The notes under the pieces were generated by a model, which was given only the letters and a program-made list of their open reading frames with translations, had not been told where the DNA came from and searched no databases. Below are positions 47,011 to 55,252 of a stretch of DNA of 64,000 nt, piece by piece. The first letter of the stretch is position 1. Every line of letters begins with the position of its first letter. This DNA is from Escherichia coli (GTDB taxonomy: Bacteria > Pseudomonadota > Gammaproteobacteria > Enterobacterales > Enterobacteriaceae): NCBI RefSeq assembly GCF_017348835.2, contig NZ_CP071375.1; one strand, given 5' to 3'. The position numbers and the translations under genes were made by a program.

Positions 47011-47087
47011 GCGCCCTTAGCTCAGTTGGATAGAGCAACGACCTTCTAAGTCGTGGGCCGCAGGTTCGAATCCTGCAGGGCGCGCCA
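47011..47087 (+). tRNA. argU: tRNA-Arg (anticodon UCU)
   Basis: 77 nt gcgcccttagctcagttggatagagcaacgaccttctaagtcgtgggccgcaggttcgaatcctgcagggcgcgcca; cloverleaf with anticodon loop cuUCUaa. Confidence 0.95.
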
Positions 47088-48265: not shown

Positions 48266-48492
48266 TTTCTTTCCTCTGTTATGCCATCACCCGCGCTCAC
48301 CTGGACAGTATGCAGCGGAGACTGAAGCGCCGCAATGCAAGCTTGCCGTGTTGTGAGGTAAGGAGATTTTGGCTTGGTTGGATCTTTACGTGTTGCCTGT
48401 AGGCGGCCTGTTCGTATCCAGTTGGTGGCGGTTGGTCTGGATATCTTAAGAAACTGACAGGCCTCATCGAGTGTGAGGCTGTATGGCTCCAT
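48121..48492 (-). CDS. xis: excisionase-like (AlpA/Xis-type HTH) protein; 3' end overlaps int start
   Basis: Start [31 protein letters not shown] at 48492 (ATG overlaps upstream stop as TAATG); 3' boundary uncertain. Confidence 0.55.
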
Positions 48493-48797
48493 TATTTCAC
48501 CTCTTGCTGTGTCATTGTTGAAAAATGGATACCAGCTCGTTGCTGCCAGACGATCCAACCGAGAGTCATATCCCATGCCATGTATTCGTTATCGCCGTTT
48601 TTTGCTCTCCGACGATCTACTAAGTCACCGAAACGCTTTTCCATGAATAATTCATAGGCTTCGCGTTCATCTGGCTCTACTTCCAGAGATACGAGTGCGA
48701 TTTCATAAGCACGGCGCTCAATATCGTCTCGAACCTCTAGGCTGCTGATTCGTTCTTTGATTTCTTTAATCAGTTCTTTATTGGTAAATGTGGTCAT
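48492..48797 (-). CDS. hypothetical phage early protein (resembles CPS-53 YfdT position)
   Basis: 101 aa acidic ORF, coupled to neighbours. Confidence 0.55.
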   Translation of the reverse strand: MTTFTNKELIKEIKERISSLEVRDDIERRAYEIALVSLEVEPDEREAYELFMEKRFGDLVDRRRAKNGDNEYMAWDMTLGWIVWQQRAGIHFSTMTQQEVK

Positions 48798-49153
48798 TAT
48801 GCTCCAGCCTCCGGTGCTTTTGGCATTACTGCCCAGTGAGTGATATTGACGTTTTCAAGGTCCCCGACCTGAAATGTCCACTGCCATTCTCCGGTTTCTT
48901 TTTGTCCCCAGTTGTACCAGAGAGAACGCCAGCCAATCAGCCAGCCTTCTCCATTAGCATCAAATAACAGAACACTTTCATTTGCTGGTGGCAGTTCAGC
49001 TGACACTGGTATTATTTTGTTTTCCAGTGCCGCACATTTAGCTTCAAGCGCGTCGAATTTACGTAACAGGTACTCAGCATTTGTTTCGTTCACTTTCAGA
49101 TCTCGCGGTACACATTTCCCGCGAAGAAACCCTTCCATTTCGAAAACATTCAT
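48797..49153 (-). CDS. hypothetical phage protein (resembles CPS-53 YfdS position)
   Basis: ~118 aa; ATG at 49153 overlaps stop of upstream HD gene (ATGA). Confidence 0.55.
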   Translation of the reverse strand: MNVFEMEGFLRGKCVPRDLKVNETNAEYLLRKFDALEAKCAALENKIIPVSAELPPANESVLLFDANGEGWLIGWRSLWYNWGQKETGEWQWTFQVGDLENVNITHWAVMPKAPEAGA

Positions 49154-49686
49154 GCGCATTTGCGTAACTCCGATAAATCGTTAAAACGTTCCATAAACAT
49201 CCCGTAGGCATGACCCGGTGCCAGTGGAATCACGTTGAACATCTCTGTTGCCGGGATGCCTTCCAGTACAGGCCAGAAAGAGCCATCATCAAGCCCGAGA
49301 TCGCGGCGTTCGGTTGCCAGCATGATGAGATCGGCATATTTCACGGGTGTACTCATAACTAGGGGTAACCCGTATTTCTCACGGATTACGGCGTCTATTT
49401 TTTCTTCCATTTGTTTATAGTCAGGAAGAAGGCGTTTCAGTGGTGCGGGAATGTCCTGGCAATACGCTTCTGTTGCATCATGCATTAACGCTTCAAAAGC
49501 AAATTCCTGCGGCACCAGCTGGCTGCAAAGAACCGCATGTTGGGCGACGCTGTAGAAGTGCGAAAGATGACCGGCAAAGCGACAGATATTTGAAAGGGAA
49601 ACCGCGATATCGTTAATATCGATGTCGTCTTTATTTATCTTGTCATAATAAAAATGCTTCCCGGAAAAAGTTTTAATAAATGACAT
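49150..49686 (-). CDS. HD-domain phosphohydrolase (YfdR-like)
   Basis: 178 aa from MSFIKTF with GGAG 8 nt upstream; H...HD motif (ALMHDATEAY). Confidence 0.7.
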   Translation of the reverse strand: MSFIKTFSGKHFYYDKINKDDIDINDIAVSLSNICRFAGHLSHFYSVAQHAVLCSQLVPQEFAFEALMHDATEAYCQDIPAPLKRLLPDYKQMEEKIDAVIREKYGLPLVMSTPVKYADLIMLATERRDLGLDDGSFWPVLEGIPATEMFNVIPLAPGHAYGMFMERFNDLSELRKCA

Positions 49687-49813
49687 TTTGTTCTCCACGT
49701 ATATGCACTGCACCGCGCTGAATTCTGGTAAAAGGAAGCCCTCACCATCCGGTGATTATTGAGTTAATTACGTTTCCATAAATGCCCCCGCAGGGGCATT
49801 TGCAGTAATGAAA

Positions 49814-50638
49814 TCAGGCGGTGAAAGTACCAATAAAGGTTTCTACTTTGCTGTCTTTGAATTTCTCAACAAGCAGATCACGAAATTCGTTAGCCATTTC
49901 TTCCTGCACCGCTTCCAGCTGAATAATGCGCAGAACCAGTACAGGACGATCGCCAGTGATAATGCTGAGGCGTAATTTAAACGGACGTTCTTTCAGGCCT
50001 TCAAACGGAACGCATTTAAATTCAAATGCCACTGGCATAATGTCTTTGGTCTTCGCTTCGACAGACTCCATCAGGGAGCGTTTGCCGCTGAAGTCATTAT
50101 CTTCAAAATCAGCGGTCTGGTTTGCTTCAATCGTGATTTTACGGACTGCCGCAGCCGCTTTTGTTGCCTGAATGGCGTCACCATTAGCATCAAAGCCCAC
50201 AAGGTAGTCGGCCCAGTCTTCGATCCATTCTGCCAGTGACTTCTGGGAGTTACGCTCGCCGTTAACAGACAACAGAGCAGAGAACGGTGCTGTCTTTTTC
50301 AGTTTGAGAGTGGCAGTGTTATCTGCGTGACCTGGCTCATCAATAGTACCCAGGTTAAGCACACTGACGGCACGCATATTATCGGCATCGATAAAGCAGC
50401 GGGTGCCTTCATCTGCAAGATCTTTAGAATAACGGGTAAAATCATCGATGCAGGCAGTGGAAAGTGCACCACGGAAACGGAAGCGATTTAAATTAAATTT
50501 TTCCAGATCATGAATGCGGAAATTCTCAGGCAATGCCACAGCATCGGCACCAATCTTACTGATAATTTCATTAACACCCTGAGCAGAAATAAGGGCATGG
50601 ATTTGATTAATTGCAGTTGCGTCTAAGTTCTGAGACAT
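49814..50638 (-). CDS. DUF2303-type phage protein (YfdQ-like)
   Basis: 274 aa. Confidence 0.65.
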
Positions 50639-50703
50639 AATAAGTCCTCACTATATAAAGATATTCAGTGATGAGATAAATAATCAGTTTATTACGAACG
50701 ATA

Positions 50704-51066
50704 TTAACGACCTGCTGCGCGGAGTTTTCCGTCAGGTTCACCGGCAAGAGTCAGTAATTGTCCCTGGTCTTCCTGCAGAATAGTCAGGCGACCACCGCGA
50801 TTGACATACATCGGCGTTTCGGTGGTGTCTTCTTCGGAAATTTTCCCGCGGTTAGTCGGGCGAATATATGAGAGTTTGTGTTTGATTTTCACACGGTTCT
50901 CATCAAATGGTTCGATTTCCAGGTTGAGTGAGACCTTACCTTTGGTTTTCGTGTTCATCACACCGGAAGCGACTTCACTGAGAACTGCGCCGATTTTGGT
51001 TTCAAATACGCCGCCGTCCAGCTCCCCGATAAATGCCTGCACATCAGTACTGCGTTCGCTAGCCAT
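50704..51066 (-). CDS. hypothetical phage protein (YfdP-like), first gene of the leftward block
   Basis: 120 aa from MASERSTDVQ; GGAG upstream. Confidence 0.55.
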   Translation of the reverse strand: MASERSTDVQAFIGELDGGVFETKIGAVLSEVASGVMNTKTKGKVSLNLEIEPFDENRVKIKHKLSYIRPTNRGKISEEDTTETPMYVNRGGRLTILQEDQGQLLTLAGEPDGKLRAAGR

Positions 51067-51536
51067 TTTGCTGCTCCTCATCATATCGACCCTGCAAGGC
51101 CGATTAGTTTCTCCACAAAACAGAGAAGAACACCTGTGGTGGCCGCCGCCCGGATGGATTGGGTTATGAGCCCGTCGTCCGGTGATGCTCTTCTCTGTTT
51201 TGTAAAAAGGACGGTACCAGCCGGAAGCAAGGGTACAAGCTGGTACCGCCAGGACTACACACAGCATAAAGTTGTGGTGCCGGGTGCCCTCCCGGTGCCT
51301 GGCGAAGGTTGCACACCAGGCGGGTGGGTATCCACAGAAGGTCGACTGTCAGCCTCAACCTTAACCCGCGTGCGCTGAGCCGCATTCACCACAACGCTAA
51401 GGATTCTCTCTGGTTGAAAATACTTAGCTGTTATGTGCCTGCTTTTAGCCACATCAGGCGAGGTGGACCTGGTTATTCCCCAACAACAAGGATTCGGTTA
51501 ATCTGGATATCCCCAACAACAATAAGAGTATTCAAT

Positions 51537-52052
51537 GTGATCGCTGAATTAACGGCAGCAATGACGGCTATTCGTGAAACAGCCCAGATTGCAAAACTAA
51601 TGAACGAGGCAAAAACTCAAGCTGAAGTAAATGCGGCTATTGGTGAGCTGAACTCAAAGCTTGCGTCTATTCAGCGCGAATGCGTGTCTCTCGTTGAACT
51701 GGTGGGCTCTTATCAAGAAATAAATGCTTCTCTCAAAGCTAAAATTGCAGAATTCGAAAACTTTGAGGCTCAGACGGAAGGCTATATCCTTAACCAACTT
51801 GAGTCGGGTACTTTTGTATACTCGAAGGAGGTAATCGTGAACGGTGGCAGCATAACCATGCATCTTTGCCCAAAATGTTTTGGACAAAAGATAGTATCGA
51901 TACTTCAACCATTCCCGGTTAGCGAAGATGAGCTTTTTCATAAAAGCAGGTGCCTCCACTGTGAAAATAAGTTTCTGATGAATAAAAATCCGGATTACGT
52001 ATCGCCTCCATCCATTGAGGAGTTGTCCAGAAAACTTAACGGCAATCTGTAG
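51537..52052 (+). CDS. orphan protein: N-terminal heptad-rich helix plus C-terminal CxxC...CxxC zinc ribbon; convergent with pL
   Basis: ~171 aa from GTG 51537 (or 163 aa from ATG 51561); protein-like composition; own terminator at 52092-52115. Confidence 0.55.
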   Translation: MIAELTAAMTAIRETAQIAKLMNEAKTQAEVNAAIGELNSKLASIQRECVSLVELVGSYQEINASLKAKIAEFENFEAQTEGYILNQLESGTFVYSKEVIVNGGSITMHLCPKCFGQKIVSILQPFPVSEDELFHKSRCLHCENKFLMNKNPDYVSPPSIEELSRKLNGNL

Positions 52053-52091
52053 ATTACTACTGTTGTGGATATCCAGATTGTTAAAGAGCTA

Positions 52092-52115
52092 AGCGTCCTG
52101 TAGGGCGCTTTTTTG
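52092..52115 (+). terminator. intrinsic terminator of the orphan plus-strand gene
   Basis: agcgtcc tgta gggcgct followed by TTTTTT. Confidence 0.6.
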
Positions 52116-52280
52116 TTGCTAACGAATCATCCTGGACTTCATATGCCCCAGGCGGCTACTTCGTGGGCGTCCTGCCTGTTCGTTTTTGACATTTACTGAC
52201 TGCTTACGACACATGCACCGTGTTGCAACCAGATTTTGTTGTAATCCTGTAGTTGGTCTGGAACAAAAGATAAAATTAAA

Positions 52281-52317
52281 TTGCGAGATATGCAAGCGAT
52301 ATTTGCGAGGTATGCAA
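52281..52317. promoter_or_regulatory. OL-type operator pair with likely leftward promoter pL
   Basis: Two 15-bp sites ttgcgagatatgcaa and ttgcgaggtatgcaa, 22 bp apart, just past the 3' end of cI; same motif as sites between cI and cro. Confidence 0.55.
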
Positions 52318-52371
52318 ATTTATAGGTAGTAAAAAGCCACCTTTCGGTGGCCGATGGATGGGATATTGAGG

Positions 52372-53064
52372 TTAATTATGTCTCTTAAGGGTTTGCGACT
52401 GACTGATTAAGACCTTTCCAAAGACCATGAATCGGTGTTCGTTTTCGCTAGTAATTCCCCATTCACGGTAAATCTGGTTATCAGAAATCACCAGCAGTTT
52501 GTCAGGAATCATTTGAAGTCTTTTAACGTATATTTTGTCATCAAAACCAAAGACATATATACCATCACCATCAAACTGATTGATGCTGACATCAACGAAG
52601 ATGAGATCTCCTGGCTCAATGGTTGGACACATACTGTCCCCACGAACGTTGATAACTTTGATGTGATTGGCTGGTCGTCCGCCGAACATTGATACAGCAT
52701 TATCAGTTCTGTATTCGATGGCATGAATCACATCAATGACATCACCGCCCTGGATAAGGCCATTTCCCGCACTGGCACTGATATCCAGCATTTCAATACG
52801 GAACACATCCTTCACCTGCGCAACATCCTCATTATTACTGTTTTTATATACAGTATTACTTTTGTGGGCAGAGGTAAAGAGATCAGCAATATCAACACCT
52901 AAGCTCTTGGCAATATTACTCAGTGTTTGTTCGGTAAATTGTTTTTGCTTACCCGTTTCTAAGCGCGAGATGTTCGCCGCATCTACTCCTATTGCTTCAG
53001 CGAGATCGGCGATTTTCATGTTCTTCGCTTGGCGAAGTTGTCTGACTCGGTTTCCTATGTTCAT
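52372..53064 (-). CDS. cI: CI-type prophage repressor (XRE HTH plus S24 LexA-like peptidase domain)
   Basis: 230 aa; N-terminal HTH (MKIADLAEAIGVDAANISRLETGK); C-terminal GDSM ... K peptidase motif. Confidence 0.85.
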   Translation of the reverse strand: MNIGNRVRQLRQAKNMKIADLAEAIGVDAANISRLETGKQKQFTEQTLSNIAKSLGVDIADLFTSAHKSNTVYKNSNNEDVAQVKDVFRIEMLDISASAGNGLIQGGDVIDVIHAIEYRTDNAVSMFGGRPANHIKVINVRGDSMCPTIEPGDLIFVDVSINQFDGDGIYVFGFDDKIYVKRLQMIPDKLLVISDNQIYREWGITSENEHRFMVFGKVLISQSQTLKRHN

Positions 53065-53084
53065 GCGTTTATTACATTTCTTTA

Positions 53085-53147
53085 TTGCGTGATAAGCAAA
53101 TCAACTTGCGCAAAATAATTGCGTGAAATAACATGCATAACGCGCAA
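53085..53147. promoter_or_regulatory. OR operator region with divergent pRM/pR
   Basis: ttgcgtgataagcaa (53085-53099), ttgcgcaa core, atgcataacgcgcaa (53133-53147) between divergent cI and cro. Confidence 0.55.
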
Positions 53148-53161
53148 TATTTGGAGGGCAT

Positions 53162-53422
53162 ATGCAATCACCATTACGAAATGTGCGTAAGGCGCATGGT
53201 TTCACTTTGCAGCATGTTGCTGCGGGTGTTCAAGTCAATCCAGCGACGTTGAGTCGTATTGAGAGGCTGGAGCAGATTCCATCTATCGAGCTTGCAGAAC
53301 GTTTAGCCAATTTTTTTAAGGGTGAAGTCAGCGAAATGCAGATTCTTTATCCGGCACGTTTTCAATCTAGCCAAAACCAGAATGGGTTTAAACCACAGGA
53401 ACAGGAGGTGAACCGTGGGTAA
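53162..53422 (+). CDS. cro: Cro-like HTH regulator
   Basis: 86 aa; HTH (GFTLQHVAAGVQVNPATLSRIE); GGAGGG upstream; divergent from cI. Confidence 0.75.
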   Translation: MQSPLRNVRKAHGFTLQHVAAGVQVNPATLSRIERLEQIPSIELAERLANFFKGEVSEMQILYPARFQSSQNQNGFKPQEQEVNRG

Positions 53423-54310: not shown

Positions 54311-55252
54311 ATGAGCACTAAATTAACCGGCTATGTATGGGATGGTTGCGCTGCGTCAGGCATGAAATTATCCAGCGTGGCAATTATGGCCCGCCTGGCT
54401 GATTTCAGTAATGACGAAGGTGTGTGCTGGCCATCAATTGAAACCATTGCCCGTCAGATTGGCGCGGGGATGAGTACCGTCAGAACGGCTATCGCACGGC
54501 TGGAAGCAGAAGGCTGGTTAACGCGTAAGGCGCGTCGCCAGGGTAACCGCAATGCGTCGAATGTTTATCAGCTTAACGTTGCGAAGCTTCAGGCAGCGGC
54601 ATTTTCTCAACTGTCAGATTCTGACCCGTCAAAATCTGACGCATCAAAATCTGACCCGTCAAAATTTGATGCGTCGAAATCTGGCAAAAAAGCGGGTTTT
54701 CACCCGTCAGAATCTGGCGGGGATCCGTCAGTAAAATCAAAACATGATCCGTCAGATAAAAAAACTTCTCGTCCGGACGCTTCGCAACCGGACACGCAGA
54801 AGGCTGAACAGGAGTTTTTAACTCGCCATCCTGATGCGGTTGTATTCAGCCCTAAAAAGCGCCAGTGGGGAACGCAGGATGATTTGACCTGCGCACAGTG
54901 GCTCTGGAAAAAAATCATCGCCCTGTACGAGCAGGCCGCCGAATGTGACGGCGAGGTGGTTCGTCCCAAAGAACCGAACTGGACAGCCTGGGCAAACGAA
55001 ATTCGCCTGATGTGTGTGCAGGATGGTCGTACTCACAAACAAATCTGCGAGATGTACAGCCGCGTCAGCCGCGATCCGTTCTGGTGCCGTAACGTGCTCA
55101 GCCCGTCGAAGCTGCGGGAAAAATGGGATGAGCTTTCCCTGCGCTTATCGCCGTCCGTCAGCACGTACACCGAAAAACGCGAAGACCCGTACTTCAAAGC
55201 CAGTTACGACAACGTGGACTACAGCCAGATCCCGGCAGGATTCAGGGGGTGA
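54311..55252 (+). CDS. replication initiator (O-like; N-terminal winged-helix; C-terminal region possibly YdaU/DUF1376-like) with internal origin iterons
   Basis: 313 aa; central repeat-encoded low-complexity region; position after cII. Confidence 0.65.
   Translation: MSTKLTGYVWDGCAASGMKLSSVAIMARLADFSNDEGVCWPSIETIARQIGAGMSTVRTAIARLEAEGWLTRKARRQGNRNASNVYQLNVAKLQAAAFSQLSDSDPSKSDASKSDPSKFDASKSGKKAGFHPSESGGDPSVKSKHDPSDKKTSRPDASQPDTQKAEQEFLTRHPDAVVFSPKKRQWGTQDDLTCAQWLWKKIIALYEQAAECDGEVVRPKEPNWTAWANEIRLMCVQDGRTHKQICEMYSRVSRDPFWCRNVLSPSKLREKWDELSLRLSPSVSTYTEKREDPYFKASYDNVDYSQIPAGFRG
54620..54762. repeat. putative replication origin: ~7 iteron copies (core CCGTCAG) followed by an A-rich tract
   Basis: tctgacccgtcaaaa / tctgacgcatcaaaa / tctgacccgtcaaaa / tttgatgcgtcgaaa tandem 15-mers plus cacccgtcagaatctgg, gatccgtcagtaaaatc, gatccgtcagataaaaaaa. 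Confidence 0.6.

Follow-up and report, generated by a model that had tools for sequence, protein, structure and literature searches.

A phage moron consists of a gene with its own promoter and its own terminator, inserted in an operon of the prophage. The element described here was found in a 64,000-nt stretch of Escherichia coli DNA (RefSeq assembly GCF_017348835.2, contig NZ_CP071375.1), which is referred to below as the window; it is the leader, containing two copies of a C/A-rich 13-mer, of a plus-strand gene at 51537-52052 encoding a homolog of the defence protein Rip1. Several described systems resemble parts of it. According to a meeting report, Rip1 is a prophage defence protein, 12 copies of which cap an 11-mer terminase ring, suggesting a pore (PMC12908700), and a preprint presents the small terminase as the component sensed by Rip1 (10.64898/2026.04.30.721860). 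With respect to mRNA leaders, ACA motifs placed just upstream of the Shine-Dalgarno sequence (SD) act as translation enhancers in yifK and dppA, and such enhancers are silenced by the small RNA (sRNA) GcvB (Yang, Figueroa-Bossi and Bossi 2014, PMC3879156). Prophages also carry AgvB and AsxR, independent sRNAs of 51-60 nt with a conserved 3' terminator domain of ~42 nt, located at the PR' late-region moron site (Tree et al. 2014, PMC4104026).

The reading preferred for the two 13-mers, in which about even confidence is placed, is that each represents the C/A-rich box of one repeat of a tandem promoter-leader unit, with box 1 lying over the -35 and box 2 forming an unstructured, ACA-bearing mRNA start before the ribosome-binding site. 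The element is of known kinds, a moron promoter and a C/A-rich leader, with an unusually conserved and modular architecture. Its interest lies in the fact that the discovery of prophage defence genes such as Rip1 is advancing rapidly, while the control of their expression, that is, a low level which spares the host and a shut-off at prophage replication, is largely unknown.

The two boxes, the gene and the conserved leader

The 13-mer TCCCCAACAACAA is present on the plus strand in two exact copies, box 1 (51477-51489) and box 2 (51510-51522), 33 nt apart from start to start, and the end of the second copy lies 15 nt from the G of the start codon (51522 to 51537), as the original prediction had stated. 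When exact 13-mers recurring within 60 nt were counted over the whole window, two were observed, namely this pair and another one inside an O-like replication gene, the chance expectation being 0.02 per window (100 first-order Markov simulations). The 13-mers are the cores of a wider, diverged tandem duplication, whose two units span 51469-51502 and 51503-51535. The upstream element U0 (GCCTGCTTTTAGCCACATCAGGCGAGGTGG, 51437-51466, plus strand; compare TTCACCAC..AGGCTCGGTGGATC with TTCCCCAAC..AGGATTCGGTTAATC) is a third such unit, also diverged; it holds a small hairpin, CCAC at 51449-51452 with GTGG at 51463-51466, and shows one compensatory change, CCGC/GCGG, in Edwardsiella. Two-box homologs keep the pair at a spacing of 33-35 bp in every subfamily.

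The gene behind the boxes had been taken for an orphan, a label which has to be corrected. On the basis of its sequence and of a modelled structure, the product of 171 amino acids belongs to the Rip1 family; it has an N-terminal coiled coil followed by a C-terminal CxxC...CxxC beta domain. It matches phrog_1244 (9e-60) and has homologs across Enterobacterales at 40-99% identity. The family profile matches PDB entry 9oox, 'ring interacting pore 1 (Rip1)', which contains the Rip1 of phage HK446 in complex with the T6 small terminase (hmmsearch, 1.7e-19, positions 5-151), and the window protein on its own matches the same entry (phmmer, 2.7e-7). In addition, its AlphaFold (AF2) model has a predicted local distance difference test score (pLDDT) of 88, and both 9oox chains were the top Foldseek matches to this model, with a probability of 1.0 and a template modelling (TM) score of up to 0.72 on the target. 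Searches of Pfam, PADLOC and NCBIfam with the gene product gave no match. Compared with HK446 Rip1, the protein shares sequence and fold homology as well as the antisense position in the PL operon, where HK446 rip1 and HK620 hkaP lie between N and cIII/kil; nevertheless, it is only ~27-28% identical, and defence, terminase sensing and pore formation are reported only for Rip1 itself. By analogy, the cassette gene is a putative anti-phage defence cargo. As a separate observation, Rip1-like proteins (~29% identity) occur in Pseudomonas Mu-like transposable phages (DMS3, JBD30, MP42, D3112 orf25 and others) and in a Rhodobacter phage, so the family reaches well beyond the enteric lambdoid prophages.

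The GTG at 51537 is supported as the start codon, since it aligns with the ATG of a Klebsiella phage homolog and fits the N-termini of 25 homologs. Upstream of it, the frame stays open for a further 228 nt (51309-51536), with both boxes reading SPTT in frame, and this explains the N-terminally extended versions, of 186-243 amino acids, in public gene calls. A coding extension over the boxes was ruled out by 1-nt indels between loci and by an in-frame stop in the Klebsiella copy.

The leader is better conserved than the gene it serves. In 21 divergent loci, compared with the window by nucleotide identity, the 75-nt leader was 86-95% identical, the whole coding sequence 55-64% and third codon positions 40-48%, the coding sequence being near saturation; this pattern was found in 15 of the 19 loci having a two-box leader. 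The first 30 codons (56-70% identity) are as diverged as the rest, so that conservation breaks at the start codon and not at a recombination point inside the gene, and an intragenic recombination breakpoint as the cause of leader identity was thereby ruled out. Among 26 distinct leaders, the box 1 core ATTCCCCAACA, the left-arm sequence TAATCTGGAT (part of the inverted repeat treated below) and CCCCA(A)C are invariant or nearly so, and the start codons are mostly GTG or TTG.

Viral contigs were scanned for the two-box leader with TCTGGATATCCCCAACA as the query. The complete leader precedes at least three unrelated cargo types: Rip1-like genes, the ECs1072 family (NF033230) and a pair formed by a small peptide and a membrane protein. 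In leaders with different cargo, homology stops directly after box 2 and every cargo has its own SD, from AAGAG to AAGGAG. The two-gene cargo (loci L181, L180, L147, L198 and L210) encodes a Pro/Lys/Arg-rich peptide of 35-52 amino acids and then a predicted membrane protein of ~150 amino acids; neither matched Pfam or NCBIfam, and together they may constitute a defence or exclusion system.

Moreover, the modularity extends to the parts of the leader. U0 precedes unrelated genes in SfII, SfV, HK446, HK620 and over 120 viral contigs; in SfII and SfV, U0 (51437-51466) is all that is shared with the window leader, and divergence sets in just before box 1. In HK446 and HK620, U0 is followed by another box, TACCCCTACAG, present twice, 34 nt apart, the second copy adjoining a UAAGAG SD; since these distant Rip1 genes have different boxes, it is the two-box design itself which is conserved. 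Two-box (type B) leaders contain pairs of TCCCCAACAAC, ACCCCTACAG, TTTCCACAGTCAAA, CCCCAACATAA or CCCCAACAGC, 32-35 nt apart and always identical within a leader while differing between subfamilies, and single-unit leaders in Arsenophonus and Trabulsiella keep box 2. Single-hairpin (type A) leaders also stand behind U0, for instance TAT-CTTGG..CTCACACA..CCAAG-AAGGA, and their stems covary. This type A family is itself large (viral loci L283-L380, e.g. L284, L294, L338 and L365) and precedes many different small prophage genes; its stems are CTTGG/CCAAG, GCTGG/CCAGC, ACTGG/CCAGT and CCTTTTA/TAAAAGG around the C/A-rich loop CTCACACA, the 3' arm running into the SD and the 5' arm overlapping a -10-like TATnnT.

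The element is a portable module of leader and probable promoter, used by enteric prophages for different defence genes. It has no Rfam entry, and no description of it was found in the searchable literature. Like a moron, the cassette combines a promoter-like element, an open reading frame (ORF) and an intrinsic terminator within the PL operon near the immunity region, with cargo that varies between otherwise similar phages; unlike a moron, it has a 5' module, and often also a 3' module, far more conserved than the cargo; the 5' module is built of internal tandem repeats and has been reused in different genera for three or more unrelated cargo families. A module of ~100 nt is, in other words, more conserved than the proteins it serves and has been reused in many enteric genera.

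Promoter-like signals and the predicted mRNA start

Of 106 distinct two-box leaders, 86, with every subfamily represented, have a hexamer [T/G]AnnnT exactly 17 bp after the T(T/A)CCCC of box 1, and no positional peak for such a hexamer appeared in shuffled leaders. The sequences found at this position are TAATCT (in the window, 51499-51504, plus strand), TATAAT (in several subfamilies), TAAAAT, TAAACT, TAGACT, TAGTCT and TATATT, with A2 and T6 constant and positions 3-5 variable, the pattern typical of a -10. Given this distance, box 1 would overlap a weak sigma-70 -35, TTCCCC at 51476-51481, made up of the preceding T (51476) and the beginning of the box, and transcription would be expected to start at about 51509-51512. 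The type A leaders have the same layout, since their U0 reads TTCACC-16-TGgTATCTT, an extended -10 promoter, and the promoter-like motif is followed by ~6 nt, a C/A-rich stretch and the SD. In the U0 of the window the extended -10 is degraded to GACCTG.

At the RNA level, box 2 would constitute the first ~13 nt of a short, G-poor and unpaired 5' untranslated region (UTR) of ~27 nt, with one intervening nucleotide before the SD and 14 before the GTG. The SD, AAGAG at 51524-51528 (plus strand, 8 nt before the GTG), is weak as read from the sequence, in line with what had been claimed for this gene, and it is kept as (A/T)GAG in Rip1-type leaders. This open 5' UTR with its ACA motifs would favour ribosome loading or enhance translation, and in the lysogen the outcome would be a low but dependable expression of a potentially toxic Rip1-type protein. 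The combination of a weak -10, a weak -35, a weak SD and a GTG start fits such a protein.

Several points weigh against this proposal. TTCCCC matches TTGACA at only 3/6 positions, TAATCT in the window also reaches 3/6, and a strict consensus scan calls no promoter in 50900-53300. The proposed start is a prediction from the DNA sequence, and the leader clusters share ancestry, so that the counts overstate their independence. Furthermore, the 5' arms of two hairpins, H1 in the window and H2 in HK446-type leaders, lie between -10 and +1 and would be absent from the proposed mRNA; with these arms upstream of +1, another RNA must also matter, the candidates being the antisense PL transcript and an isoform started from a promoter further upstream. 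Finally, two observations are left unexplained by the model, namely the identity of the boxes within a leader, as opposed to their difference between subfamilies, and a CCCC run better conserved than the ACA part.

As regards these hairpins, H1 (51465-51495, plus strand) has its 5' arm GGACCU at 51465-51470, box 1 in its loop and its 3' arm AGGAUUC at 51489-51495. Consensus relatives have UGGAUCCU, a 17-nt loop and AGGAUUCG, with -7.8 kcal/mol; the window reaches -4.0 kcal/mol, a 1-nt deletion having produced a bulged A which weakens the stem. The stems change by lineage (UCUGG/CCAGA, CAUUCC/GGAAUG, UUCUCGU/GCGAGAA, UUCCUU/AAGGAA, UUCUUA/UAAGAA), and in 0 of 2000 permutations of the 5' and 3' flanks was the pairing of the own flanks matched or exceeded. 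H2, formed around box 2, is evident in HK446-type leaders, where CUCUUAC/GUAAGAG changes to UCAACAC/GUGUUGA; as a device hiding the SD in leaders of the window type it was discarded, as it was no better than shuffles (mean z 0.40).

Apart from H1, the leader is open. As a whole it is less structured than its shuffles (z = +0.66 and +1.41 on the two strands), RNAalifold returned just two helices, one of 3 bp and a 4-bp hairpin having one compensatory change, and an Rfam search with the leader gave no match. A structured cis-regulatory or riboswitch-like RNA was rejected for this reason, no stable covarying fold extending across the element and only H1 having covariation support. The predicted ~27-nt 5' UTR is entirely unpaired, and box 2 is unpaired in every minimum free energy fold.

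The position of box 2, its composition and these folds suggest a role in the RNA, and specifically an enhancer effect. Box 2 contains two ACA triplets, and in 30 of 39 leader clusters the 22 nt preceding the SD are enriched in ACA, with a mean of 1.15 against 0.64 in composition-matched shuffles. By analogy with yifK and dppA, its function as an ACA enhancer of translation is partly supported: in both cases a single-stranded C/A-rich ACA stretch lies directly 5' of the SD of a poorly initiating gene, its distance from the SD can vary, and related leaders show ACA enrichment. The differences are that an exact 13-mer occurs here twice, with an invariant CCCC run, in a portable module shared by unrelated phage genes, that the distal copy overlaps a promoter-like -35, and that complementarity to GcvB is limited to 8 nt. 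The original idea of a CA-rich translational enhancer can therefore be retained for the start-proximal copy, which carries the ACA motifs, is unpaired and adjoins the SD, but such an enhancer would not be confined to weak SDs, since strong ones such as AAGGAG also occur in cargo genes behind this box.

The same composition raises the question of whether the boxes are targets of Hfq, of a GU-rich sRNA such as GcvB that would silence the enhancer, or of both, the leader perhaps acting as an AgvB-like sponge. In fact, CAACAACA, the exact complement of 8 nt of the GcvB R1 region, is present twice, box 2 and the SD together (51515-51529) read AAC AAC AAU AAG AGU, an (ARN)5 pattern of the Hfq distal-face type (Tree et al., PMC4104026), and GcvB is a known silencer of ACA enhancers (PMC3879156). 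Nevertheless, the unrestricted duplex energy with GcvB was no better than in background windows or shuffles, and conservation centres on the core UCCCCAACA rather than on the stretch complementary to GcvB. The boxes of Edwardsiella (CAACAGC) and HK446 (CCCCUACAG) have lost this complementarity as well as the ARN pattern, and the (ARN)n motif is missing from the corresponding leaders (CCCCAACAGCUAAAUGG and ACCCCUACAGUAAGAG, respectively). In addition, the Hfq-CRAC (cross-linking and analysis of cDNA) sRNA table has no Hfq-bound sRNA at the copy in prophage Sp6 of O157 Sakai, which lies at NC_002695.2:1543588-1544298, and AgvB is an independent sRNA encoded elsewhere in prophages. Such targeting is considered very doubtful. 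The locus shares with AgvB and AsxR a C/A-rich prophage sequence resembling a GcvB target and an ARN-type Hfq motif, and it differs in being an mRNA leader beside the immunity region, absent from the Hfq-bound sRNAs of Sakai; an anti-sRNA of the AgvB type was rejected, given that AgvB sits at the PR' site and that no terminator separates the boxes from the ORF here. A type III toxin-antitoxin system (toxI-like) was likewise discarded, with only two repeats, no intervening terminator and a Rip1-like protein.

The two features left aside by the promoter-leader proposal, concerted change and the CCCC run, are those expected if the boxes were paired sites for one sequence-specific factor, bound as a dimer on DNA at about -35 and +1 or to two RNA loops, which would set the expression of the defence gene and make the promoter-like and enhancer-like features secondary. 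Boxes identical within a leader and different between subfamilies, the conserved spacing of 33-35 bp (about three helical turns), a CCCC run invariant beyond the needs of an ACA enhancer and near-total sequence conservation without RNA structure all speak for such a factor, as does the presentation of box 1, and of box 2 in HK446-type leaders, in hairpin loops. Yet no candidate binding factor emerged, and a host factor would not require subfamily-specific box sequences. The cargo protein cannot be the factor, as cargo varies behind the same leader, and the boxes are not immunity operators, as the type of repressor (cI or RacR) varies with the context. Operators for cI were rejected on the additional ground that the real ones are TTGCGAG-N-ATGCAA. 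Paired sites are regarded as unlikely, and the promoter-leader unit remains the preferred reading.

The inverted repeat, boxA and the antisense strand

Box 2 is at the same time the inner half of an inverted-repeat arm. The left arm, AATCTGGATATCCCCAACAACAATAA (51500-51525, plus strand, core 51500-51512), and the right arm, TTACTACTGTTGTGGATATCCAGATT (52054-52079, plus strand, core 52067-52079), are 26 nt long and 85% complementary, and bracket the ORF. Over the 13-nt core the arms are perfectly complementary in 147 loci, which are most of them, with one compensatory pair, and the right arm together with the adjacent boxA occurs solely with left-arm leaders, 164 to 0. Transposon ends were considered and dismissed, the conserved sequence continuing outside both arms.

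On the minus strand, GCTCTTTAACAA (52089-52078) abuts the right arm and is the only exact boxA match in the window. It is identical, 12/12, to the rrn boxA-spacer core ugcucuuuaacaa (PMC2724277), and it is kept in nearly all loci, reading TGCTCTTTAACAA in a different prophage context. This strand would be the one transcribed from PL: the OL-type operators TTGCGAGATATGCAA and TTGCGAGGTATGCAA (52279-52317) are direct repeats matching the OR copy at 53085-53099, from which it follows that PL probably fires leftward from about 52260, its exact position being an estimate, and runs antisense through the cassette. The putative site is thus comparable to the rrn and lambda boxA in its minus-strand identity to the rrn boxA core and spacer start and in its location downstream of the presumed PL; it differs in that neither a boxB-like hairpin nor an N-like gene is evident in this phage, in that the PR operon yielded no second boxA, and in that a long-range inverted-repeat arm directly follows. 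Between the boxA and the operators, the plus strand carries the intrinsic terminator of the cargo mRNA, AAGCGTCCTGTAGGGCGCTT with a T-run (52091-52116), which should act mainly on that strand, as its T:G pair becomes A.C on the minus strand, where a U-run is lacking.

One alternative built on these elements is that the conserved sequences work chiefly on the other strand, or serve as handles for recombination, the 13-mers having no role in gene expression. In the first variant, the right arm following boxA in the PL transcript would pair with the left arm, and hence with box 2, across the antisense cargo; in the second, the conserved flanks would simply permit cargo swapping. The exact rrn-type boxA directly beside the right arm, the perfect complementarity of the arm cores and the 164-to-0 association are all in favour of this view. 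The cassette slot is, moreover, a mosaic when E. coli genomes and phages are compared, its junctions falling sharply at the edges of the module, and the cassette is always antisense within the PL operon, HK446 and HK620 included. Against it, both boxes are kept where the right arm and boxA are absent (Edwardsiella, HK446, Arsenophonus), and box 1 lies outside the inverted repeat. The comparison of G.U with A.C pairs assigned neither the inverted repeat nor the hairpins to one strand. With regard to the second variant, an inverted repeat cannot mediate cassette replacement through homologous recombination, and handles alone leave the fixed relation between box 2 and the SD of every cargo unexplained. 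The whole explanation is considered quite improbable.

A broader scheme, which we put forward as decidedly speculative and with very low confidence, would join boxes, inverted repeat and boxA in a 'defence-cargo frame' through which an abortive-infection gene would be expressed according to the state of the prophage. The box promoter and leader would drive the cargo at a low level in the lysogen. Upon induction, boxA-modified transcription from PL would run antisense through the cassette and the 13-26-nt inverted repeat would form a long-range stem beside boxA, comparable to that of rRNA operons, by which the antisense cargo would be looped out or processed, so that the defence gene would be turned off and the phage's own terminase spared (self-immunity); the identical boxes would be sites for a factor covarying with the subfamily.

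If the promoter-leader proposal is true, the sequence of the module would provide a search handle for new defence cargo beside prophage immunity regions, as well as a compact natural test case of a tandem promoter combined with a C/A-rich leader. The antisense placement with respect to PL, the boxA and the flanking inverted repeat would, in turn, offer an entry to the self-immunity question.

Prophage setting and further observations

The window contains a lambdoid prophage of the SfV/SfII/KplE1-like type. A tRNA gene at 47011-47084 (plus strand, 72 bits), ~0.9 kb from the integrase end of the prophage, is presumably its attachment site. On the minus strand, integrase and excisionase at about 48000 are followed by yfdT/S/R/Q/P-like early-left genes (48492-51065). 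The cassette, consisting of leader, gene and terminator, occupies about 51437-52116 on the plus strand, and beyond it lie cI (52372-53064) and its terminator (52352-52335), both on the minus strand, and cro, on the plus strand from 53162.

Two other repeats or RNA-like stretches were observed in this prophage. The O-like replication gene (54311-55252) contains the other closely repeated 13-mer of the window, TCTGACCCGTCAA, twice, 30 nt apart, at 54620-54662, and its protein carries SDPSKSDASKSDPSK repeats; these are probably origin iterons. On the minus strand, 51201-51425 gives a sub-threshold Rfam match to the sRNA STnc100 (36.5 bits against a gathering score of 47, E 3.5e-5), and the adjoining long leader of the early-left operon holds at 51115-51203 an 18-nt inverted repeat, 94% complementary, with arms 53 nt apart. 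The whole of this stretch, inverted repeat included, is conserved in SfII, SfV and the 'ymfH' region of K-12 e14, and it might be a leader or a put-like RNA of phages devoid of N.

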